DNA from: Escherichia coli
GTDB taxonomy: Bacteria; Pseudomonadota; Gammaproteobacteria; Enterobacterales; Enterobacteriaceae
Reading direction: 5' to 3' (one strand)
Assembly: GCF_050920415.1 (NCBI RefSeq)
Contig: NZ_CP169309.1
DNA: 64,000 nucleotides
The translations under genes and the position numbers were made by a program. This document shows, one piece after another, positions 7,304 to 60,117 of this stretch (positions are counted from its first letter, which is position 1; every line of letters begins with the position of its first letter). Under the pieces are notes generated by a model. The model was given only the letters and a program-made list of their open reading frames with translations, made no database searches and was not told the DNA's origin.

Positions 7304-7401
7304 GCCGGATGCGGCGTGAACGCCTTATCCGGCCTACAAGATCGTGCAAATTCAATATATTGCATGAGCCATGTAGGCCTGATAAGCGTAGCGCATCAGG
7401 C
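7304..7401. repeat. BIME: inverted pair of REP elements, flanked by two copies of a ccgggcttaaacccgg hairpin (7253-7270 and 7426-7449)
   Basis: gccggatgcggcgtgaacgccttatccggcctac and inverted gtaggcctgataagcgtagcgcatcaggc; typical REP consensus. Confidence 0.85.
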
Positions 7402-11264: not shown

Positions 11265-11270
11265 TTTCTT

Positions 11271-11288
11271 TGTTTAATTTACTAAACA
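11271..11288. promoter_or_regulatory. NadR-type operator (TGTTTA-N6-TAAACA) immediately upstream of nadB
   Basis: tgtttaatttactaaaca palindrome 7 nt upstream of nadB start codon. Confidence 0.6.
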
Positions 11289-11561
11289 CGGTTTGGTCAG
11301 CATAGCATCATGTTGTGCGATTAAACACCTGCTATTTTAATTTTTGTTACAGAGGCTAAACAGACCGAATCACGGCGACGAGAAAACGAGAAGTTACTGG
11401 CTGGCGAAGGATTAGGTGGTGAAATAAAAAGGCCGTTGGGTTACTCTTCAGGCAGTTAAATGGGCATTTCTACACAGATAATGCGATGTTCAGATTCTGT
11501 AGACTTATAATGATAGATAATGATCCGTCTACAGCATGACAAACAAAAACAGATGCGTTAC

Positions 11562-11589
11562 GGAACTTTACAAAAACGAGACACTCTAA
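11562..11589 (+). promoter_or_regulatory. Sigma-E dependent promoter of rpoE (autoregulated P2-type)
   Basis: GGAACTT -16 nt- TCTAA, matching the sigma-E -35/-10 consensus, ~85 nt upstream of rpoE ATG. Confidence 0.7.
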
Positions 11590-11615
11590 CCCTTTGCTTG
11601 CTCAAATTGCAGCTA

Positions 11616-11675
11616 ATGGAGTGGCGTTTCGATAGCGCGTGGAAATTTGGTTTGGGGAGACTTTACCTCGGATGA
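11616..11675 (+). CDS. rseD: 19-codon leader ORF (rseD-type) translationally coupled to rpoE via ATGA overlap
   Basis: atg gag tgg cgt ttc ... ctc gga TGA, with the stop overlapping the rpoE ATG (ggATGAgc). Confidence 0.55.
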   Translation: MEWRFDSAWKFGLGRLYLG

Positions 11676-12930: not shown

Positions 12931-13886
12931 TGAAGCAACTTTGGTTTGCCATGTCATTAGTGACAGGTAGCCTGTTATTCTCTGCTAACGCCTCGGCCAC
13001 TCCCGCGTCCGGGGCGTTATTACAGCAGATGAACCTGGCCAGTCAGTCACTGAATTACGAGCTGTCATTCATCAGCATCAATAAACAGGGTGTTGAGTCT
13101 CTGCGTTATCGACATGCACGCCTCGATAACCGTCCTCTTGCACAATTGTTGCAAATGGATGGCCCGCGCCGGGAAGTGGTACAGCGCGGCAATGAAATCA
13201 GCTACTTTGAACCGGGCCTTGAACCGTTCACGCTTAATGGCGATTACATTGTTGATTCTCTGCCATCGCTCATCTATACCGATTTCAAACGCCTTTCTCC
13301 TTACTACGACTTTATCTCCGTGGGACGCACGCGTATTGCTGATCGTCTTTGCGAAGTCATTCGCGTGGTGGCCCGTGATGGCACACGCTACAGCTACATC
13401 GTGTGGATGGACACCGAATCGAAATTACCGATGCGGGTTGATCTCCTTGATCGCGATGGTGAAACGCTGGAACAATTTCGCGTGATTGCTTTTAACGTTA
13501 ATCAGGATATCAGCAGCAGTATGCAGACGCTGGCGAAAGCAAATCTGCCGCCGCTGCTTTCTGTTCCTGTAGGTGAAAAAGCTAAATTCAGCTGGACGCC
13601 AACCTGGTTGCCACAGGGGTTTAGTGAGGTTTCCAGCAGCCGACGTCCGTTACCGACGATGGACAACATGCCTATCGAATCACGTCTCTATTCCGACGGA
13701 TTATTCAGCTTCTCGGTAAACGTTAACCGCGCTACGCCATCGAGCACCGATCAGATGTTGCGCACCGGACGCAGAACCGTCAGTACAAGCGTACGTGATA
13801 ACGCCGAAATCACCATTGTCGGCGAACTGCCGCCGCAAACGGCGAAACGCATTGCCGAGAATATTAAGTTCGGGGCAGCGCAATGA
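12930..13886 (+). CDS. rseB: Sigma-E regulatory protein RseB (periplasmic)
   Basis: 318-aa ORF with signal peptide, start overlaps rseA stop (TAATG). Confidence 0.95.
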   Translation: MKQLWFAMSLVTGSLLFSANASATPASGALLQQMNLASQSLNYELSFISINKQGVESLRYRHARLDNRPLAQLLQMDGPRREVVQRGNEISYFEPGLEPFTLNGDYIVDSLPSLIYTDFKRLSPYYDFISVGRTRIADRLCEVIRVVARDGTRYSYIVWMDTESKLPMRVDLLDRDGETLEQFRVIAFNVNQDISSSMQTLAKANLPPLLSVPVGEKAKFSWTPTWLPQGFSEVSSSRRPLPTMDNMPIESRLYSDGLFSFSVNVNRATPSSTDQMLRTGRRTVSTSVRDNAEITIVGELPPQTAKRIAENIKFGAAQ

Positions 13887-14362
13887 TCAAAGAGTGGGCT
13901 ACGGTCGTCTCCTGGCAAAACGGGCAGGCGCTGGTCAGTTGTGATGTTAAAGCCTCATGCAGCAGCTGTGCTTCTCGTGTCGGTTGCGGTAGCCGCGTGC
14001 TGAATAAACTTGGCCCACAAACCACGCATACCATTGTCGTACCCTGTGATGAACCGTTAGTGCCGGGGCAAAAAGTGGAATTAGGAATCGCCGAGGGCAG
14101 CCTGCTTAGCTCCGCATTACTGGTTTATATGTCGCCGTTGGTGGGATTATTCCTCATCGCTTCGTTATTTCAGCTACTCTTTGCTTCAGATATTGCAGCA
14201 TTATGCGGTGCGATTCTCGGCGGCGTTGGTGGATTCCTGATTGCACGCGGCTACTCGCGAAAGTTTGCTGCCCGGGCGGAATGGCAACCGATCATCTTAA
14301 GCGTGGCATTGCCGCCAGGCCTTGTGCGATTTGAAACATCTTCGGAAGACGCGAGCCAGTGA
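13883..14362 (+). CDS. rseC: RseC (SoxR-reducing system component-like membrane protein)
   Basis: 159-aa ORF, overlaps rseB stop; cysteine-rich N-terminus plus TM segments. Confidence 0.9.
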   Translation: MIKEWATVVSWQNGQALVSCDVKASCSSCASRVGCGSRVLNKLGPQTTHTIVVPCDEPLVPGQKVELGIAEGSLLSSALLVYMSPLVGLFLIASLFQLLFASDIAALCGAILGGVGGFLIARGYSRKFAARAEWQPIILSVALPPGLVRFETSSEDASQ

Positions 14363-14559
14363 TTTCACTGGCTTTGTTGCATTTTGCATAACAAATGCGA
14401 GGACGTTTCCAGATACCACAATCCATACCGTATGAACATTTCCTCGCCTCAATGTTGTAGTGTAGAATGCGGCGTTTCTATTAATACAGACGTTAAGCTC
14501 AGAACAGCGACTTCTAAAAGCCTGGTTAACCGGGCATTAAGGCACAATAATCATACTTT

Positions 14560-16359
<1,800 letters not shown>

Positions 16360-17400: not shown

Positions 17401-17591
17401 TATGAGATAAATCTCCCGTGGCTAACGACATCCCCCGTCGTTGTGTATAGAATATTCCCCCGAAGTTTAAGGTTGGCACCTCCAGGTTGCCACGGCACAC
17501 GAAACAGCGTTGGTCCCCATATACCGGTAAACTGAAACTGCAGCGAAGCAGTTAGCAGAGCCATGTATATCAGGTCTGTTTCGTGTGCTGA

Positions 17592-19204
<1,613 letters not shown>

Positions 19205-21084: not shown

Positions 21085-21170
21085 TAAAAAGTAAAACCCC
21101 CGAACTGGTAAGGAACGGGGGTTTTACTTTACAACTTTAATTTTGTGCAGCACGCACCCTCAATGAGAGC
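21085..21170 (-). ncRNA. ohsC: Putative OhsC antisense sRNA (antitoxin of ShoB); boundaries approximate
   Basis: Known shoB-ohsC locus between acpS and yfhL; segment 21145-21164 is a 19/20 direct repeat of shoB 5'UTR segment 21393-21412, so a minus-strand transcript here would pair with the shoB leader; terminator at 21091-21130 fits a minus-strand 3' end. Confidence 0.45.
21091..21130. terminator. Bidirectional rho-independent terminator (acpS on + strand; likely also ohsC on - strand)
   Basis: aaaacccccg-N14-cgggggtttt hairpin flanked by A-run upstream and T-run downstream. Confidence 0.7.
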
Positions 21171-23781: not shown

Positions 23782-25882
<2,101 letters not shown>

Positions 25883-26047
25883 TTAGTTAATTCTCTGTGT
25901 CGTGCGCATCCCAGCTTGAAAAAACGTAATAATAGTGAAAGGTTTACTCATAAATGAGCGGCATTTTGCGTAAACCAGCGCCAGTTGGCAACTTATTACA
26001 GCCATTGGCGGCACGCGTTGCTAATTCACAATGGTGATTTTATTTCC

Positions 26048-26063
26048 ACGCAAACGGTTTCGT
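26048..26063. promoter_or_regulatory. PurR operator upstream of purL
   Basis: acgcaaacggtttcgt matches the PurR box consensus (aCGCAAACGtTTtCnT), ~80 nt upstream of purL ATG. Confidence 0.7.
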
Positions 26064-26139
26064 CAGCGCATCAGATTCTTTATAATGACGCCCGTTTCCC
26101 CCCCTTGGGTACACCGAAAGCTTAGAAGACGAGAGACTT

Positions 26140-29100
26140 ATGATGGAAATTCTGCGTGGTTCGCCTGCATTGTCGGCATTCCGAATCAACAAACTGCTGG
26201 CACGTTTTCAGGCTGCCAGGCTCCCGGTTCACAATATTTACGCCGAGTATGTCCATTTTGCTGACCTCAATGCGCCGTTAAACGATGATGAGCACGCACA
26301 ACTTGAACGCCTGCTGAAATATGGCCCGGCACTCGCCAGCCACGCCCCGCAAGGTAAACTCCTGCTGGTGACCCCGCGTCCTGGTACCATCTCTCCCTGG
26401 TCTTCGAAAGCGACCGATATCGCCCATAACTGCGGGCTGCAACAGGTAAACCGCCTTGAGCGCGGCGTTGCTTACTATATAGAAGCCGGTACGCTGACCC
26501 ATGAACAATGGCAGCAGGTGACCGCTGAACTGCACGACCGCATGATGGAAACGGTCTTTTCTGCTTTAGATGATGCAGAGCAGCTGTTTGCACACCATCA
26601 ACCGACTCCGGTCACCAGCGTTGATTTGCTGGGGCAGGGACGTCAGGCGCTAATCGACGCTAACCTGCGTCTTGGCCTGGCACTGGCGGAAGATGAAATT
26701 GACTATCTGCAGGATGCATTCACAAAGCTGGGTCGTAACCCGAACGACATCGAGCTGTATATGTTCGCCCAGGCGAACTCTGAGCACTGCCGCCATAAAA
26801 TTTTTAACGCCGACTGGATTATCGACGGTGAACAACAGCCGAAATCGCTGTTCAAGATGATCAAAAACACCTTCGAAACCACGCCGGATCACGTTCTCTC
26901 GGCTTATAAAGATAACGCCGCCGTAATGGAAGGTTCTGAAGTGGGCCGCTACTTTGCTGACCACGAAACGGGCCGCTACGATTTCCATCAGGAACCGGCG
27001 CATATCCTGATGAAAGTAGAAACCCACAACCACCCAACGGCGATTTCTCCGTGGCCGGGTGCGGCAACCGGTTCCGGTGGCGAAATTCGTGATGAAGGTG
27101 CCACCGGCCGCGGCGCGAAGCCGAAAGCTGGTCTGGTCGGTTTCTCCGTATCCAACCTGCGTATTCCTGGCTTTGAACAACCGTGGGAAGAAGATTTCGG
27201 TAAGCCTGAGCGCATTGTCACCGCGCTGGACATCATGACAGAAGGTCCGCTGGGCGGCGCGGCATTTAACAACGAATTTGGTCGTCCGGCACTGAACGGC
27301 TACTTCCGTACCTATGAAGAAAAAGTGAACAGCCACAACGGCGAAGAGCTGCGCGGGTATCACAAACCGATCATGCTGGCGGGTGGGATCGGCAACATTC
27401 GCGCCGATCACGTACAAAAAGGCGAGATCAACGTCGGTGCGAAACTGGTCGTTCTCGGCGGCCCGGCAATGAACATCGGTCTTGGCGGCGGCGCGGCCTC
27501 TTCCATGGCCTCCGGCCAGTCTGACGCGGATCTCGATTTCGCGTCCGTTCAGCGCGATAACCCGGAAATGGAACGTCGCTGTCAGGAAGTGATCGACCGC
27601 TGCTGGCAGCTTGGCGACGCGAACCCGATTCTGTTTATCCACGACGTCGGCGCAGGCGGTCTTTCTAACGCCATGCCGGAGCTGGTGAGCGACGGCGGAC
27701 GCGGCGGTAAATTTGAACTGCGCGATATCCTGAGCGACGAACCGGGCATGAGCCCGCTGGAAATCTGGTGTAACGAATCCCAGGAACGCTACGTGCTGGC
27801 CGTTGCTGCCGATCAGTTACCGCTGTTTGACGAACTGTGTAAGCGTGAGCGCGCACCGTACGCGGTGATTGGTGAGGCCACCGAAGAATTACATCTTTCT
27901 CTGCACGATCGTCATTTTGATAATCAACCCATCGATCTGCCGCTCGACGTACTACTTGGCAAAACGCCGAAGATGACCCGCGATGTGCAAACGCTGAAAG
28001 CGAAAGGCGACGCGTTGTCCCGTGAAGGGATCACCATCGCTGACGCGGTGAAGCGTGTGTTACATCTGCCGACTGTGGCGGAGAAAACCTTTCTGGTGAC
28101 CATCGGCGATCGCAGCGTAACCGGCATGGTGGCGCGCGATCAGATGGTGGGTCCGTGGCAGGTGCCGGTCGCTAACTGCGCAGTCACTACCGCCAGCCTC
28201 GACAGTTACTACGGTGAAGCGATGGCAATAGGCGAACGTGCGCCAGTTGCACTGCTGGATTTCGCCGCTTCTGCCCGCCTGGCGGTCGGTGAAGCGTTAA
28301 CTAACATCGCCGCTACGCAGATTGGCGATATCAAACGCATTAAACTTTCCGCTAACTGGATGGCGGCAGCAGGTCATCCAGGTGAAGACGCGGGCCTGTA
28401 TGAAGCCGTTAAAGCGGTGGGCGAAGAGCTTTGTCCGGCGCTGGGCCTGACGATTCCGGTGGGTAAAGACTCTATGTCGATGAAAACCCGCTGGCAGGAA
28501 GGTAGCGAAGAGCGCGAAATGACCTCGCCGCTTTCGCTGGTGATTTCTGCATTTGCCCGCGTGGAAGATGTGCGTCACACCATCACGCCGCAGCTTTCTA
28601 CCGAAGATAACGCACTGCTGCTGATTGATCTGGGCAAAGGCAATAACGCGCTGGGCGCAACGGCGCTGGCGCAGGTTTATCGTCAGCTTGGCGACAAACC
28701 GGCAGATGTACGCGATGTCGCGCAACTGAAAGGCTTCTATGATGCGATTCAGGCGCTGGTTGCACAGCGTAAGCTGCTCGCGTATCACGACCGCTCTGAT
28801 GGCGGGCTGGTGGTAACGCTGGCGGAAATGGCCTTTGCTGGTCATTGCGGCATTGACGCGGATATCGCCACTCTGGGTGACGATCGCCTGGCGGCGTTGT
28901 TTAACGAAGAACTGGGGGCGGTGATTCAGGTGCGCGCTGCTGACCGTGAAGCGGTCGAAGCGGTACTGGCACAGCATGGCCTTGCTGATTGCGTCCATTA
29001 TGTTGGGCAGGCGGTTTCCGGTGACCGTTTTGTAATTACCGCCAACGGGCAGACTGTATTCAGCGAAAGCCGCACCACGTTGCGTGTCTGGTGGGCAGAA

Positions 29101-30027
29101 ACTACCTGGCAGATGCAGCGCCTGCGTGACAACCCGGAGTGTGCCGATCAGGAACATCAGGCGAAATCTAACGACGCCGATCCGGGCCTGAATGTGAAAC
29201 TGTCGTTTGATATCAACGAAGATGTGGCAGCACCGTATATTGCCACTGGTGCGCGTCCGAAAGTTGCCGTGCTGCGTGAGCAGGGGGTGAACTCGCATGT
29301 TGAAATGGCGGCAGCTTTCCACCGTGCAGGCTTCGATGCACTCGATGTGCATATGAGCGACCTGCTGGCTGGACGCACGGGCCTGGAGGATTTCCACGCT
29401 CTGGTAGCGTGCGGCGGTTTCTCCTACGGTGATGTGCTGGGTGCTGGTGAAGGCTGGGCGAAGTCTATCCTGTTCAATGACCGTGTACGCGATGAGTTTG
29501 CAACCTTCTTCCACCGTCCGCAAACGCTGGCGCTGGGGGTATGTAACGGTTGCCAGATGATGTCTAACCTACGCGAACTGATCCCAGGTAGCGAGTTGTG
29601 GCCACGTTTCGTGCGTAACACCTCCGATCGCTTTGAAGCGCGTTTCAGCCTGGTAGAAGTGACCCAAAGCCCGTCTCTGCTGTTGCAAGGGATGGTGGGT
29701 TCGCAGATGCCGATTGCTGTCTCTCACGGCGAAGGACGCGTGGAAGTGCGCGATGCGGCGCATCTGGCGGCACTGGAAAGCAAAGGGCTGGTGGCACTGC
29801 GCTATGTCGATAACTTCGGCAAAGTCACTGAAACCTACCCGGCTAACCCGAACGGTTCTCCGAATGGTATTACGGCGGTCACGACTGAAAGTGGTCGAGT
29901 CACCATTATGATGCCGCACCCGGAACGTGTTTTCCGTACTGTCAGTAACTCCTGGCATCCGGAAAACTGGGGCGAGGATGGCCCATGGATGCGTATTTTC
30001 CGCAATGCGCGTAAGCAGTTGGGGTAA
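26140..30027 (+). CDS. purL: Phosphoribosylformylglycinamidine synthase (FGAM synthase)
   Basis: 1295-aa [27 protein letters not shown]..., C-terminal glutaminase domain. Confidence 0.97.
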
Positions 30028-30049
30028 GTCGTCAAACTATTGGTTTTGC

Positions 30050-30082
30050 TGCCCGGATGTGGCATTCACGCCGCATCCGGCA
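30050..30082. repeat. REP element downstream of purL
   Basis: gcccggatgtggcattcacgccgcatccggca, REP consensus in inverted orientation. Confidence 0.75.
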
Positions 30083-30103
30083 TTAAACGCCGACCACTAT
30101 CAT

Positions 30104-30130
30104 AAGCTCCCAGCTCCGGGAGCTTTTTTT
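30104..30130 (+). terminator. Rho-independent terminator of purL
   Basis: aagctccc-agctcc-gggagctt hairpin followed by T7. Confidence 0.75.
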
Positions 30131-30131
30131 G

Positions 30132-30245
30132 TGTCTGTAAATCACGACAATGGGTGGTTTACTGTGTCGCTTTTTGGCGACATTTAATTGATTGATTTTA
30201 TTTGGGTCTAATAAATTTATCTTAAGGTGTCTCTTTTTAGCGACA
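30132..30245. promoter_or_regulatory. Three TGTC-N10-GACA sites (~30132-30149, 30165-30182, 30228-30245): GlrR/QseF activator binding sites upstream of glmY
   Basis: tgtctgtaaatcacgaca, tgtcgctttttggcgaca, tgtctctttttagcgaca; arrangement matches the known GlrR-dependent glmY upstream region. Confidence 0.65.
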
Positions 30246-30333
30246 CAATGGCTGATTGACACCCAAATAGCGAAGAAGTCATAAATCCATCAAAACAACG
30301 TATAATCAGTACGTTACCAAACTATTTTATTTA

Positions 30334-30349
30334 TTGGCACAGTTACTGC
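30334..30349 (+). promoter_or_regulatory. Sigma-54 (-24/-12) promoter of glmY
   Basis: TGGCAC-agtta-CTGCA with GG at -24 and GC at -12, about 12 nt upstream of the glmY 5' end. Confidence 0.65.
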
Positions 30350-30361
30350 ATAATAGTCATC

Positions 30362-30548
30362 AGTGGCTCATTCACCGACTTATGTCAGCCCCTTCGGGAC
30401 GTGCTACATAAAATTCGAATGACGCACAACAAGGTGCCTGCCGTCCAACTTCTGATATCAGCTTAGCTATATCAACCCTCGGGCGAAACGTCGAGTTAGG
30501 CACCGCCTTATTCCATAACAAAGCCGGGTCATTCCCGGCTTTGTTGTA
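30362..30548 (+). ncRNA. glmY: GlmY small RNA (regulator of glmS via GlmZ/RapZ)
   Basis: Starts AGTGGCTCATTCACCGACTTATGTCAGCCCC as recalled for GlmY; ends at aagccgggtcattcccggctt hairpin plus U-rich tail; lies between purL and glrK. Confidence 0.8.
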
Positions 30549-30603
30549 TCTGAACTTCCCCTCGGTTAGCATCAGGCTATTCGCGTCTGACGAGAGTAAC
30601 ACC

Positions 30604-32031
30604 TTGAAACGCTGGCCCGTTTTTCCCCGCTCATTACGACAACTGGTAATGCTGGCATTTTTGCTGATTCTGCTACCCCTGTTGGTGCTGGCATGGCAAG
30701 CCTGGCAAAGCCTGAATGCGCTTAGCGATCAGGCGGCGCTGGTTAACCGCACTACGCTTATTGATGCCCGGCGCAGTGAAGCGATGACCAACGCGGCGCT
30801 GGAGATGGAGCGTAGCTACCGTCAGTATTGCGTGCTGGATGACCCAACCCTGGCGAAGGTTTATCAAAGCCAGCGCAAGCGTTATAGCGAAATGCTCGAT
30901 GCCCACGCAGGCGTACTGCCGGACGATAAACTATACCAGGCATTGCGTCAGGACTTGAACAATCTGGCTCAACTTCAGTGTAACAACAGCGGTCCCGATG
31001 CTGCCGCCGCCGCGCGTCTGGAAGCTTTTGCCAGCGCCAATACCGAAATGGTACAGGCCACGCGCACAGTGGTGTTCTCTCGCGGACAGCAGCTTCAGCG
31101 TGAAATCGCCGAACGTGGGCAATATTTTGGTTGGCAATCGCTGGTGTTATTTCTGGTAAGTCTGGTGATGGTGCTGCTCTTCACGCGGATGATTATCGGC
31201 CCGGTGAAAAATATTGAACGGATGATCAACCGTCTGGGGGAAGGGCGTTCTCTGGGCAATAGCGTTTCGTTCAGTGGACCGAGTGAGTTACGCTCGGTTG
31301 GGCAACGTATTCTTTGGTTAAGTGAGCGCCTGTCATGGCTGGAATCCCAGCGCCATCAATTCTTAAGACATTTATCTCATGAATTAAAAACCCCGCTGGC
31401 GAGTATGCGAGAGGGCACTGAATTACTGGCTGACCAGGTTGTCGGGCCGCTTACGCCCGAGCAAAAAGAGGTGGTGAGCATCCTTGATAGCAGCAGCCGC
31501 AATTTGCAAAAACTGATCGAACAACTGCTTGATTACAACCGTAAACAGGCGGACGGTGCAGTGGAACTGGAGAGTGTAGAGTTAGCACCGCTGGTGGAAA
31601 TGGTGGTTTCTGCTCATAGCCTGCCCGCACGGGCTAAAATGATGCATACCGACGTCGATCTCAAAGCAACTGCTTGCCTGGCGGAGCCAATGCTGCTGAT
31701 GAGCGTACTGGATAATCTTTACTCCAATGCGGTGCACTACGGGGCTGAATCCGGTAACATTTGCCTTCGCAGCAGTTTACATGGCGCGCGGGTTTATATT
31801 GATGTCATCAATACGGGCACACCCATTCCGCAAGAGGAACGCGCCATGATCTTCGAACCCTTTTTTCAGGGAAGCCACCAGCGAAAAGGGGCGGTGAAGG
31901 GCAGCGGTCTGGGATTAAGCATTGCCAGGGATTGTATTCGCCGTATGCAGGGGGAACTGCATCTGGTCGACGAGAGCGGGCAAGAGGTTTGCTTCCGCAT
32001 TGAATTACCGTCGTCGAAAAACACGAAATAA
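30604..32031 (+). CDS. glrK: Sensor histidine kinase GlrK (QseE)
   Basis: ORF 30541..32031; start set at in-frame TTG 30604 (475 aa, clear of the glmY terminator); TM segment, HAMP and H-box (LSHELKTPL). Confidence 0.8.
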   Translation: MKRWPVFPRSLRQLVMLAFLLILLPLLVLAWQAWQSLNALSDQAALVNRTTLIDARRSEAMTNAALEMERSYRQYCVLDDPTLAKVYQSQRKRYSEMLDAHAGVLPDDKLYQALRQDLNNLAQLQCNNSGPDAAAAARLEAFASANTEMVQATRTVVFSRGQQLQREIAERGQYFGWQSLVLFLVSLVMVLLFTRMIIGPVKNIERMINRLGEGRSLGNSVSFSGPSELRSVGQRILWLSERLSWLESQRHQFLRHLSHELKTPLASMREGTELLADQVVGPLTPEQKEVVSILDSSSRNLQKLIEQLLDYNRKQADGAVELESVELAPLVEMVVSAHSLPARAKMMHTDVDLKATACLAEPMLLMSVLDNLYSNAVHYGAESGNICLRSSLHGARVYIDVINTGTPIPQEERAMIFEPFFQGSHQRKGAVKGSGLGLSIARDCIRRMQGELHLVDESGQEVCFRIELPSSKNTK

Positions 32032-32195
32032 TGTTAAGAGCCTATCCCATCAGGCTATTTTATTTGCCAGTTTGGCCCCGTGCAGTGCTCGAAATCCTTA
32101 CGTACTACGTGTACGCTCCGGTTTCTCCGCGCTGTCCATGTCCAAACTGCCTGCAACAATTACGCCCACTGGGATAGGTTTTAAGTCTGGTGAAT

Positions 32196-32909
32196 ATGCG
32201 ACACATTTTTCAACGATTATTGCCCCGACGGCTATGGCTGGCAGGGCTGCCATGTCTGGCATTGCTGGGTTGCGTGCAGAGTCACAATAAGCCAGCTATT
32301 GATGCGCCAGCAGAAGAAAAAATTCCGGTTTATCAACTGGCTGACTATCTTTCTACTGAATGTAGCGACATCTGGGCGCTGCAAGGTAAATCAACCGAAA
32401 CCAATCCGCTTTACTGGCTGCGGGCGATGGATTGTGCTGAACGTTTAATGCCTGCGCAGTCGCGTCAGCAAGCCCGCCAATATGACGACGGCAGCTGGCA
32501 AAATACCTTCAAACAAGGGATTTTGCTCGCCGACGCCAAAATTACGCCTTATGAGCGCCGCCAGCTGGTCGCGCGCATTGATGCGTTAAGTACCGAGATC
32601 CCGGCACAGGTTCGCCCACTGTATCAACTCTGGCGCGACGGTCAGGCGCTGCAACTGCAACTGGCGGAAGAGCGCCAACGCTACAGCAAACTCCAGCAGT
32701 CCAGCGACAGCGAACTGGATACTTTGCGCCAGCAACATCACGTTCTACAGCAGCAACTGGAGCTCACCACCCGCAAGCTGGAAAATCTGACCGATATTGA
32801 ACGTCAGCTCTCGACCCGCAAACCGGCTGGCAATTTCTCGCCGGATACGCCGCACGAGAGTGAAAATCCCGCGCCATCTACCCATGAGGTCACTCCTGAT
32901 GAGCCATAA
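32196..32909 (+). CDS. qseG: Outer-membrane lipoprotein QseG (YfhG)
   Basis: ORF 32190..32909 with lipoprotein signal (LALLGC) and Q-rich coiled-coil C-terminus; start 32190 or 32196. Confidence 0.8.
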   Translation: MRHIFQRLLPRRLWLAGLPCLALLGCVQSHNKPAIDAPAEEKIPVYQLADYLSTECSDIWALQGKSTETNPLYWLRAMDCAERLMPAQSRQQARQYDDGSWQNTFKQGILLADAKITPYERRQLVARIDALSTEIPAQVRPLYQLWRDGQALQLQLAEERQRYSKLQQSSDSELDTLRQQHHVLQQQLELTTRKLENLTDIERQLSTRKPAGNFSPDTPHESENPAPSTHEVTPDEP

Positions 32910-34233
32910 GCCTGCGCATTTATTACTGGTCGATGACGATCCTGGATTGCTGAAACTGCTTGGCTTGCGTCTGACCAGCGAAGGCTACAGCGTGGTCACG
33001 GCAGAAAGTGGAGCTGAAGGATTGCGGGTACTGAATCGCGAAAAAGTAGATTTAGTCATCAGCGACCTGCGGATGGATGAAATGGACGGTATGCAGTTGT
33101 TTGCCGAAATCCAGAAAGTGCAGCCGGGAATGCCGGTAATTATTCTTACCGCCCATGGTTCCATTCCCGATGCGGTTGCCGCGACACAGCAGGGCGTGTT
33201 CAGTTTCCTCACCAAGCCTGTCGATAAAGACGCGCTGTATCAGGCAATTGACGATGCTCTGGAGCAATCAGCTCCCACTACCGACGAACGCTGGCGCGAG
33301 GCGATTGTCACTCGTAGTCCGTTAATGTTGCGCTTGTTGGAACAGGCGAGGCTGGTGGCGCAGTCAGATGTTAGCGTTTTGATTAACGGTCAGAGCGGTA
33401 CCGGGAAAGAGATTTTTGCCCAGGCGATCCACAACGCCAGCCCGCGCAACAGCAAGCCGTTTATTGCTATTAACTGTGGCGCATTGCCCGAGCAATTACT
33501 GGAGTCCGAGCTGTTTGGTCATGCGCGTGGCGCGTTTACTGGCGCTGTCAGCAATCGCGAAGGTTTATTCCAGGCGGCGGAAGGCGGTACGCTGTTTCTC
33601 GATGAGATTGGCGACATGCCCGCACCGTTGCAGGTCAAACTGCTACGCGTGTTGCAGGAGCGCAAAGTGCGCCCGCTGGGGAGCAACCGCGATATTGATA
33701 TCGACGTGCGGATTATTTCCGCCACTCACCGTGACCTGCCAAAGGCGATGTCGCGCGGGGAATTCCGTGAAGATCTCTACTATCGCCTCAACGTTGTCAG
33801 TCTGAAAATCCCGGCATTGGCGGAGCGCACAGAAGACATTCCGCTACTGGCAAACCACTTATTGCGCCAGGCGGCAGAGCGACATAAACCGTTTGTCCGC
33901 GCATTCTCCACCGATGCAATGAAACGACTGATGACCGCGAGCTGGCCGGGTAATGTGCGCCAGTTGGTCAACGTGATTGAACAGTGCGTGGCGCTAACAT
34001 CATCTCCGGTGATTAGTGATGCGTTAGTCGAGCAGGCGCTGGAGGGCGAAAATACGGCTCTGCCAACCTTTGTTGAGGCGCGTAATCAGTTTGAACTCAA
34101 CTACTTGCGTAAGCTGCTGCAAATCACCAAAGGTAATGTCACCCACGCGGCGAGAATGGCGGGGCGCAACCGGACAGAATTTTATAAACTGCTTTCCCGA
34201 CACGAGCTGGATGCAAACGATTTCAAGGAATGA
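32899..34233 (+). CDS. glrR: Sigma-54-dependent response regulator GlrR (QseF)
   Basis: ORF 32797..34233; start at ATG 32899 ([18 protein letters not shown]) gives 444 aa; receiver domain, AAA+ sigma-54 activator domain (GESGTGKE-like GQSGTGKE), C-terminal HTH. Confidence 0.9.
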
Positions 34234-34257
34234 ATCGGCGTAATGTGTTACGTTTAG

Positions 34258-34632
<375 letters not shown>

Positions 34633-34675
34633 ACCGCGTCAGGGTTGCCGGATGTCTCCATCCGGCAACCTCAAA

Positions 34676-35866
34676 TCACAGCACTTTATGCGGGCCAAAG
34701 CATTCGTAATGAATGTTTTCCTGTTTCACACCCAGGTCCACTAACTGTTTCGCGGCAAACTGCATGAAGCCAACCGGGCCGCAGAGATAGAACTGCATTG
34801 TCGGATCGCTGAACGCACCTTCCAGTTTGCTCAAATCCATCAGACCTTCACTATCAAACTGACCTTTAGCGCGATCGGCTTCGCTCGGCTGACGATACCA
34901 GGTGTGCGCGGTAAAGCGTGGCAGTGCTTGCCCCAGTTCCTTAACTTCATCGGCAAAGGCATGAACATCGCCATTTTCTGCCGCATGGAACCAGTTTACC
35001 TCAGCGCTATGACCTGCTTTTGCCAGCGTGTCGAGCATTGCCAGCATTGGTGTTTGACCGACACCGGCAGAGATTAACGTCACCGGCGTGTCATCTGCGA
35101 TAGCCATAAAGAAATCACCTGCCGGAGCGACCAGTTTCACGACATCGCCAACGTTGGCGTGATTGTGTAACCAGTTTGATACCTGCCCACCCTCTTCGCG
35201 TTTCACTGCAATACGATAGCCTTTGCCATCCGGTTTGCGCGTCAAAGAGTACTGACGAATTTCCTGATGTGGGAAACCTTCCGGCTTCAGCCAGACGCCG
35301 AGATATTGCCCTGGACGGTATTCCGCCACTGCGCCGCCGTCCACCGGCTCAAGTTCGAAACTGGTGATAAGCGTGCTGCGCGGTGTTTTAGCTACAATGC
35401 GGAAATCGCGAGTACCTTCCCAGCCACCGGCTTTGCTGGCGTTTTCGTTATAGATTTCCGCCTCGCGATTAATAAATACATTAGCCAGTACGCCATAGGC
35501 TTTACCCCACGCGTCCAGTACTTCCTGGCCCGGGCTGAACATTTCGTCCAGCGTCGCCAACAGGTGTTCACCGACGATATTGTATTGTTCCGGTTTGATC
35601 TGGAAGCTGGTGTGTTTCTGAGCGATTTTTTCTACCGCTGGTAACAGCGCAGGCAGGTTTTCAATATTGCTGGCGTAGGCGGCAATAGCGTTAAACAGGG
35701 CTTCACGTTGATCGCCATTACGCTGGTTACTCATGTTAAAAATTTCTTTGAGTTCTGGGTTATGAGTAAACATACGGTCGTAGAAATGGGCGGTTAACTT
35801 TGGCCCTGTTTCCACCAGTAAAGGGATGGTGGCTTTTACTGTAGCGATGGTTTGAGCGTCAAGCAT
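34676..35866 (-). CDS. hmp: Flavohemoprotein (nitric oxide dioxygenase)
   Basis: 396 aa from ATG 35866 ([17 protein letters not shown]...), globin domain plus FAD/NAD reductase domain. Confidence 0.95.
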
Positions 35867-35892
35867 ATGGTCTTCCTTTTTTTGCATCTTAA

Positions 35893-35915
35893 TTGATGTA
35901 TCTCAAATGCATCTT
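35893..35915 (-). promoter_or_regulatory. NsrR operator in hmp promoter
   Basis: Reverse strand reads AAGATGCATTTGAGATACATCAA, an 11-1-11 inverted repeat matching the NsrR consensus, ~30 nt upstream of hmp ATG. Confidence 0.6.
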
Positions 35916-36193
35916 ATAAAAAATAGCCCTGCAATGTAAATGGTTCTTTGGTGTTTTTCATGAAGAATGTGATGAAGTGAAAAATTTGCATCACAAACCT
36001 GAAAAGAAATCCGTTTACGGTTGCAAGCTCTTTATTCTCCAAAGCCTTGCGCAGCCTGAAGGTAATCGTTTGCGTAAATTCCTTTGTCAAGACCTGTTAT
36101 CGCACAATGATTCGGTTATACTGTTCGCCGTTGTCCAACAGGACCGCCTATAAAGGCCGAAAATTTTATTGTTAGCTGAGTCAGGAGATGCGG

Positions 36194-37447
36194 ATGTTAA
36201 AGCGTGAAATGAACATTGCCGATTATGATGCCGAACTGTGGCAGGCTATGGAGCAGGAAAAAGTACGTCAGGAAGAGCACATCGAACTGATCGCCTCCGA
36301 AAACTACACCAGCCCGCGCGTAATGCAGGCGCAGGGTTCTCAGCTGACCAACAAATATGCTGAAGGTTATCCGGGCAAACGCTACTACGGCGGTTGCGAG
36401 TATGTTGATATCGTTGAACAACTGGCGATCGATCGCGCGAAAGAACTGTTCGGCGCTGACTACGCTAACGTCCAGCCGCACTCCGGCTCCCAGGCGAACT
36501 TTGCGGTCTACACCGCGCTGCTGGAACCCGGCGACACCGTTCTGGGTATGAACCTGGCGCATGGCGGTCACCTGACTCACGGTTCTCCGGTTAACTTCTC
36601 CGGTAAACTGTACAACATCGTTCCTTACGGTATCGATGCTACCGGTCATATCGACTACGCCGATCTGGAAAAACAAGCCAAAGAACACAAGCCGAAAATG
36701 ATCATCGGTGGCTTCTCTGCATATTCCGGCGTGGTTGACTGGGCGAAAATGCGTGAAATCGCTGACAGCATCGGTGCTTACCTGTTCGTTGATATGGCGC
36801 ACGTTGCGGGACTGGTCGCTGCTGGCGTCTACCCGAACCCGGTTCCTCATGCTCACGTAGTGACTACCACCACTCACAAAACCCTGGCGGGTCCGCGCGG
36901 CGGCCTGATCCTGGCGAAAGGCGGTAGCGAAGAACTGTACAAAAAACTGAACTCTGCCGTTTTCCCTGGTGGTCAGGGCGGCCCGTTGATGCACGTAATC
37001 GCTGGTAAAGCGGTTGCTCTGAAAGAAGCGATGGAACCTGAGTTCAAAACTTACCAACAGCAGGTCGCGAAAAACGCTAAAGCGATGGTAGAAGTATTCC
37101 TGGAGCGCGGTTACAAAGTGGTTTCCGGCGGTACTGATAACCACCTGTTCCTGGTTGATCTGGTTGATAAAAACCTGACCGGTAAAGAAGCTGACGCCGC
37201 TTTGGGCCGTGCTAACATCACCGTTAACAAAAACAGCGTACCGAACGATCCGAAGAGCCCGTTTGTAACCTCCGGTATTCGCGTGGGTACTCCGGCGATT
37301 ACACGTCGTGGCTTTAAAGAAGCCGAAGCGAAAGAACTGGCTGGCTGGATGTGTGACGTGCTGGACAGCATCAATGATGAAGCCGTTATCGAGAGCATCA
37401 AAGGTAAAGTTCTCGATATCTGCGCACGTTACCCGGTTTACGCATAA
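36194..37447 (+). CDS. glyA: Serine hydroxymethyltransferase
   Basis: 417 aa from ATG 36194 ([22 protein letters not shown]...), PLP-lysine motif TTTTHKTL. Confidence 0.97.
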
Positions 37448-60002: not shown

Positions 60003-60117
60003 AAGATAACAAGATATTAGAATCAGGCCGGGGCGTCTCGCGCTCCGTAAACACGGTCGTACATCCAGCCGGTAGCCTGGTTCCTTGCATTGAGTGATGT
60101 ACGGAGTTTATAGAGCA

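Follow-up and report, generated by a model that had tools for sequence, protein, structure and literature searches.

The glmY small RNA locus and its GlrR/sigma-54 control region upstream of glrK in an Escherichia coli genome

The region 30132-30548 of the window (the whole 64,000-nucleotide, or 64-kb, stretch of E. coli DNA analysed here), together with its flanks, is almost certainly the canonical Escherichia glmY locus, with glrK translated from the TTG codon at 30604. The identity of the small RNA gene, and of the GlrR/sigma-54 control region that precedes it, is supported by an Rfam match, by the curated K-12 annotation, by the published promoter anatomy (PMC3045617) and by a sigma-54 motif obtained by ChIP-seq (PMC4591121), and we found nothing substantive that speaks against it. 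The locus is an ordinary one: it is already known and thoroughly characterised, and it holds no novelty. A sequence-only reading of the same DNA had described a complete glmY regulatory module between purL and glrK, composed of three TGTC-N10-GACA activator sites, a TGGCAC-N5-CTGCA sigma-54 promoter and an RNA of ~185 nt ending in a hairpin terminator, all directly upstream of glrK, qseG and glrR. Each of these parts was recovered where it had been placed (Table 1), the RNA measuring 184 nt by homology with K-12. The description left out two IHF-like sites, the sigma-70 -10 hexamer that overlaps the sigma-54 promoter, and the promoter that glrK has of its own. What had to be corrected in that reading is detail, not substance.

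Table 1. Features of the glmY locus and of the genes on either side (positions in the window; distances are from the glmY +1)
Feature	Position	Strand	Details
purL intrinsic terminator	30104..30131	+	hairpin AAGCTCCC-AGCTCC-GGGAGCTT plus T-run; terminator scan
ABS1, GlrR/QseF activator site	30132..30149		TGTCTGTAAATCACGACA; at -230; identical in K-12
ABS2, GlrR/QseF activator site	30165..30182		TGTCGCTTTTTGGCGACA; at -197; half-sites fully or almost invariant over 11 species
IHF-like site 1, distal	30185..30197	-	AATCAATCAATTA; matches WATCARNNNNTTR
ABS3, GlrR/QseF activator site	30228..30245		TGTCTCTTTTTAGCGACA; at -134; exact TGTC-N10-GACA match
IHF-like site 2, proximal	30304..30316	+	AATCAGTACGTTA; matches WATCARNNNNTTR; identical in K-12
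Sigma-54 promoter of glmY	30335..30350	+	TGGCACAGTTACTGCA (TGGCAC-N5-CTGCA); -24 GG at 30336-37, -12 GC at 30348-49
Sigma-70 -10 hexamer of glmY	30349..30354	+	CATAAT; overlaps the -12 element; named in PMC3045617
Predicted glmY primary transcript	30362..30545	+	184 nt; Rfam RF00128; K-12 b4441 by alignment
Predicted processed, active GlmY	30362..30509	+	148 nt; end coincides exactly with the end of the Rfam match; form from PMC4152352
Predicted glmY intrinsic terminator	30515..30547	+	14-bp hairpin; core GCCGGG-TCATT-CCCGGC; 3' arm and tail TTTGTTGT
Putative sigma-70 -10 hexamer of glrK	30567..30572	+	TAGCAT; exact in 9 of 11 species
glrK/qseE, sensor kinase	30604..32031	+	475 aa, MKRWPVFPRSLRQ...; TTG start; PGAP in 100% identical record; K-12 b2556
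qseG, lipoprotein	32196..32909	+	NCBIfam NF007997, 357 bits (cut-off 234)
glrR/qseF, sigma-54-dependent response regulator	32899..34233	+	NCBIfam equivalog NF011695, 980 bits (cut-off 763)

The RNA gene and its neighbourhood

The following observations identify the gene and its setting: (i) The Rfam model of GlmY (RF00128) matches 30362..30509 on the + strand with 145.3 bits (gathering score 33) and is covered in full (model positions 1-163). This is the only match to the GlmY clan in the window, and Rfam assigns it best to GlmY, not to GlmZ. (ii) In the curated annotation of K-12 MG1655 the ncRNA gene glmY (b4441, 184 nt) lies between purL and glrK, which starts 58 nt further on; alignment with this annotation gives the window coordinates of both genes, and the comparison with annotated glmY that the sequence-only reading had proposed thus comes out in its favour. 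(iii) The location of glmY upstream of glrK (qseE) is conserved synteny (PMC6075780), and in the window the gene lies 3' of purL, whose stop is at 30027, and immediately 5' of glrK/qseE. (iv) The genes that follow are glrK, qseG and glrR both by name and by content. In one genome that is 100% identical to the window over 30028-30700 (NZ_CP169399.1), PGAP gives the order mltF, purL, qseE, qseG, glrR, glnB, hmpA; GlrK (PGAP name QseE/GlrK) carries the Pfam domains HAMP, HisKA and HATPase_c, and GlrR carries Response_reg and Sigma54_activat. QseG and GlrR exceed the cut-offs of their NCBIfam models, and for GlrK none of the NCBIfam models reached its cut-off. (v) Used as a query, the 673 bp from 30028 to 30700 matched once each, always on the chromosome, in 5,425 of the 5,426 complete E. 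coli genomes.

GlmY exists as a 184-nt primary transcript and a 148-nt processed form, and serves as a decoy for RapZ that stabilises GlmZ and activates glmS (PMC4152352). GlmZ (RF00083, in the same Rfam clan, CL00011) is an sRNA homologous to GlmY, folds in a similar way and is bound by RapZ; it carries the base-pairing site for glmS, which GlmY does not (PMC4152352), and its gene lies elsewhere in E. coli, between aslA and hemY, behind a plain sigma-70 promoter (PMC3045617, PMC4152352). When the 187 nt from 30362 to 30548 were folded and compared with shuffles, a z of -5.6 was obtained, and the four substitutions that separate this GlmY from that of K-12 over its 184 nt (30415, 30463, 30478 and 30530) are all unpaired in the predicted fold. 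Fold and homology are also what point to the predicted glmY terminator, whose interrupted T-run was missed by the terminator scan, which flagged only that of purL. Its hairpin also occurs in other Enterobacteriaceae; in Erwinia and Winslowiella its position is taken by a different hairpin with a T-run. An ORF of 76 aa with a GTG start on the minus strand (30372..30602) was dismissed as antisense to the conserved structured RNA and its terminator.

Elsewhere in the window, the other Rfam matches above the gathering score were ES036 (7338-7380, +), AsrC antisense to rseC (13847-14678, -), the rncO leader (17462-17676, +), the ohsC antitoxin sRNA (21088-21164, -) and the iscRS stability element (60007-60116, +). 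A search of the window returned no tRNA genes.

The control region of glmY

In K-12, transcription of glmY by sigma-54 depends on rpoN, glrR and IHF. There, the binding sites of GlrR are three TGTCN10GACA motifs located over 100 bp upstream of the gene, ABS2 and ABS3 being essential and ABS1 dispensable and less conserved, and two IHF-like regions with the consensus WATCARNNNNTTR flank ABS3, the distal one being indispensable to the sigma-54 promoter (PMC3045617). On both strands of the window together, exactly three exact matches to TGTC-N10-GACA are present, against an average of 0.78 in shuffles, and these are the three activator sites, which all fit in 114 bp; by arithmetic from the shuffle rate, the chance of finding three in any one span of 114 bp is roughly 1e-5 or less. 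The two IHF-like sites lie on either side of ABS3. Since the excess of IHF consensus matches in the window is slight (7, against 3.8 expected), what supports these two sites is their position and their conservation, the TTAA...TGAT columns of the distal one being invariant across 11 species.

Upstream of these elements, ABS1 directly abuts the end of the T-run of the purL terminator, an arrangement that is the same in K-12. Between the purL stop and this terminator lies a REP-like palindrome (GCCCGGATG...CATCCGGC, 30047-30090). Relative to K-12, this element has an insertion of 18 nt (30060-30077), and the purL terminator has one extra T.

TGGCAC-N5-YTGCA is matched once in the window, at the sigma-54 promoter, which departs from the consensus TGGCAC-N5-TTGCA at one base. 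Genome-wide ChIP-seq of sigma-54 in K-12 assigned the motif TTGGCACAGTTACTGCA to glmY (PMC4591121), and positions 30334-30350 of the window are identical to it. The sigma-70 hexamer CATAAT overlaps the -12 element, and both promoters share one start site (PMC3045617); for K-12 glmY (b4441; SroF/Tke1) the dual sigma-54/sigma-70 promoter is credited, in the citation given by PMC3045617, to Reichenbach, Göpel & Görke (2009, Mol Microbiol 74:1054). A simple sigma-70 scan of 29950-30700 returned no promoter. This fits the view that both sigma-70 promoters, that of glmY and that of glrK, are weak and non-consensus, and because of it neither promoter draws independent support from sequence alone.

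A second published sigma-54 target of QseF/GlrR is rpoE (PMC6075780), which lies in the same window, and the nadB-rpoE spacer (11265-11671) was examined for P2 promoter signals. Upstream of rpoE there are two loose TGT-N12-ACA matches (11271-11288 and 11345-11362), to a motif that is no more frequent in the window than chance predicts; with up to two mismatches allowed, the spacer yielded no sigma-54-like element.

For a comparison beyond Escherichia, a collection of genomes (298 Gb) was scanned with a pattern of 14 specified bases from the 5' end of glmY. The pattern was too short: it returned 120 loci, mostly chance matches in unrelated phyla, nine of them being Enterobacterales glmY loci (Citrobacter, Kluyvera, two Enterobacter, Enterobacteriaceae RIT714, two Erwinia, Winslowiella and Rahnella), and in all nine glmY was confirmed by Rfam. 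Activator-like sites with at least 7 of the 8 specified bases stand at about -230, -197 and -134 in eight of these loci; at this threshold Erwinia rhapontici has just the two promoter-proximal ones. A sigma-54 -24/-12 element is found at -27 or -26 in every one of the nine, and the distances are as in the window. In an alignment of 11 sequences, the half-sites (entirely or nearly), the distal IHF-like columns given above, the GG and TGC of the promoter (element at -27) and the 5' end of the RNA are invariant. Judged from such comparisons, the putative control architecture of glmY is conserved across three families of Enterobacterales. Like the window, the glmY loci of other Enterobacterales (groups I-III of Göpel et al. 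2011) have a sigma-54 promoter preceded at conserved distances by IHF-like sites and three sites for GlrR, and in them glmY lies immediately 5' of glrK wherever the start could be mapped. The overlapping sigma-70 hexamer is distributed differently: the alignment rows of Escherichia, Citrobacter, Kluyvera, RIT714 and the Enterobacter MAG have CATAAT, Enterobacter ENT03 has CATATT, and Erwinia, Winslowiella and Rahnella lack the hexamer, a group-restricted distribution that agrees with the published one. The window, with its CATAAT, is thus of the Escherichia/Klebsiella type, unlike these last three genera, whose loci lack the hexamer and have a different terminator hairpin.

The window appears to come from a divergent lineage of Escherichia that is catalogued as E. 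coli. Over 11.5 kb (25000-36500), coding sequences included, it is ~95% identical to K-12 (purL 94.9%, glrR 93.4%, glnB 94.1%), and over 30028-30700 an identity of 99% or more to it is reached by just six of the 5,426 complete E. coli genomes, 5,138 falling in the 90-95% band. A locally transferred intergenic allele was considered and rejected, the flanking coding genes being similarly diverged from K-12 (93-97% identity). What window and K-12 have in common is the order purL-glmY-glrK-qseG-glrR-glnB, the +1 and the 184-nt length as mapped by homology, the positions of the activator sites (-230/-197/-134) and the IHF-like sites; the -24/-12 elements and CATAAT are identical in the two.

The control region (30132-30361) differs from K-12 by 27 substitutions in 230 bp (12%), compared with about 5% in the flanking genes. 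This excess could be taken to mean that the motif matches are remnants, or chance, in a divergent lineage, and that glmY is driven by the sigma-70 promoter alone. We give this reading practically no credence: the 57 positions that the motifs specify (in ABS1-3, both IHF-like sites, the sigma-54 -24/-12 elements and CATAAT) are all free of the 27 substitutions (hypergeometric P about 2.6e-4), the sigma-54 element is identical to the one bound experimentally in K-12, glrK, qseG and glrR are intact and of full length, and the architecture is shared by the three families just described. Three of the substitutions are close to the sigma-70 promoter: 30329 falls in its presumptive -35 region, and 30358 and 30360 lie between the -10 and +1. 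We consider it unlikely that they retune glmY, compared with K-12, in its basal (sigma-70) against its induced (sigma-54) output.

The start of glrK

The sequence-only reading had also proposed the TTG at 30604 as the start of glrK, on the grounds that an in-frame ATG at 30541 sits inside the sRNA terminator. The codon at 30541 was misread. It is TTG, it is followed by a second TTG at 30544, and there is no ATG in this frame between 30481 and 30604; the location inside the terminator is right for both TTG codons, which lie in the descending arm and the T-run, but not for an ATG. The start at 30604 itself stands, on reasons that are stronger than the terminator argument. The curated K-12 annotation and PGAP both place it there. 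The codon is in frame with the long ORF, 21 codons downstream of 30541, and a Shine-Dalgarno-like GAGAG run (30592-30596) lies 7 nt upstream of it. The homologous TTG is directly preceded by an in-frame stop in five species (Kluyvera, RIT714, Erwinia mallotivora and the two Enterobacter), and is therefore the only possible start in those five; in Erwinia rhapontici and Winslowiella the homologous start codon is GTG.

The transcription of the gene has been described in K-12. Göpel and Görke (PMC6075780) report that qseEGF has a sigma-70 promoter of its own immediately downstream of glmY, with a start 25 bp upstream of the glrK start codon, that read-through from glmY into glrK is virtually absent, and that QseE is undetectable in the global proteome. 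Because of that distance, the 5' end of glrK would lie near 30579 in the window, downstream of 30541 and 30544, and from the right spacing to this start we infer that TAGCAT is the -10 hexamer. The stretch from the terminator to the TTG, including the 58-nt spacer between glmY and glrK, is identical in K-12 and the window. Within the terminator loop, positions 30529-30531 read TCA here and TAA in K-12, where they form an in-frame stop before both TTG codons. With TCA the frame is open back through glmY, with no ATG, GTG or TTG before 30541, and this has no apparent consequence.

One could still imagine that glrK starts at TTG 30541 or 30544, and that a kinase of 496 or 495 aa is made from transcripts that read through from glmY. 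Indeed, the frame has no stop from upstream of 30541 as far as 30604 (the ORF finder gives a maximal ORF of 30541..32031), both TTG codons are also present in K-12 and Citrobacter, and in Proteus mirabilis glmY-qseEGF is reported to form one operon (PMC8745638), so that independent transcription of glrK would not be universal. We nevertheless regard an extended GlrK as very improbable. Both codons are buried in the 14-bp stem of the terminator, no Shine-Dalgarno-like sequence lies upstream of 30541 (CGGGTCATTCCCGGCT), the codons precede the mapped transcription start of glrK, and in K-12 hardly any read-through from glmY is reported. Furthermore, because the in-frame stops of the five species named above lie between the terminator and the homologous start, an N-terminal extension cannot be conserved. 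The start that we retain is thus the TTG at 30604, the one annotated both in K-12 and by PGAP.

Proposed mechanism and significance

The mechanism published for K-12 can be carried over to the strain of the window by mapping its parts. GlrK (QseE), together with the lipoprotein QseG, would activate GlrR (QseF), and the phosphorylated regulator, encoded two genes downstream, would bind the three TGTC-N10-GACA sites, which lie 117-230 bp ahead of the first nucleotide of the RNA. IHF would bend the DNA at the two sites that flank ABS3, allowing GlrR to contact the sigma-54 RNA polymerase at the -24/-12 elements, and the weak, overlapping sigma-70 promoter would fire from the same start at 30362. 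The resulting transcript of 184 nt would stop at the hairpin terminator, at about 30545, and then be trimmed to 148 nt; in this form GlmY would sequester the adaptor RapZ, GlmZ would be protected from RNase E, and more GlmS would be synthesised. Past the terminator, glrK would be separately transcribed from its own weak sigma-70 promoter (-10 at 30567, start near 30579).

The value of this analysis is chiefly that of a quality check: the raw sequence sufficed to recognise a known sRNA gene together with its enhancer sites and sigma-54 promoter, as well as a start codon other than ATG. The biology of the locus is important, since through GlmY, GlmZ, RapZ and GlmS it controls the synthesis of cell-envelope precursors, and it has been established in K-12. 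To this the window adds one thing only, a footprint of natural variation that is consistent with the published map of sites.
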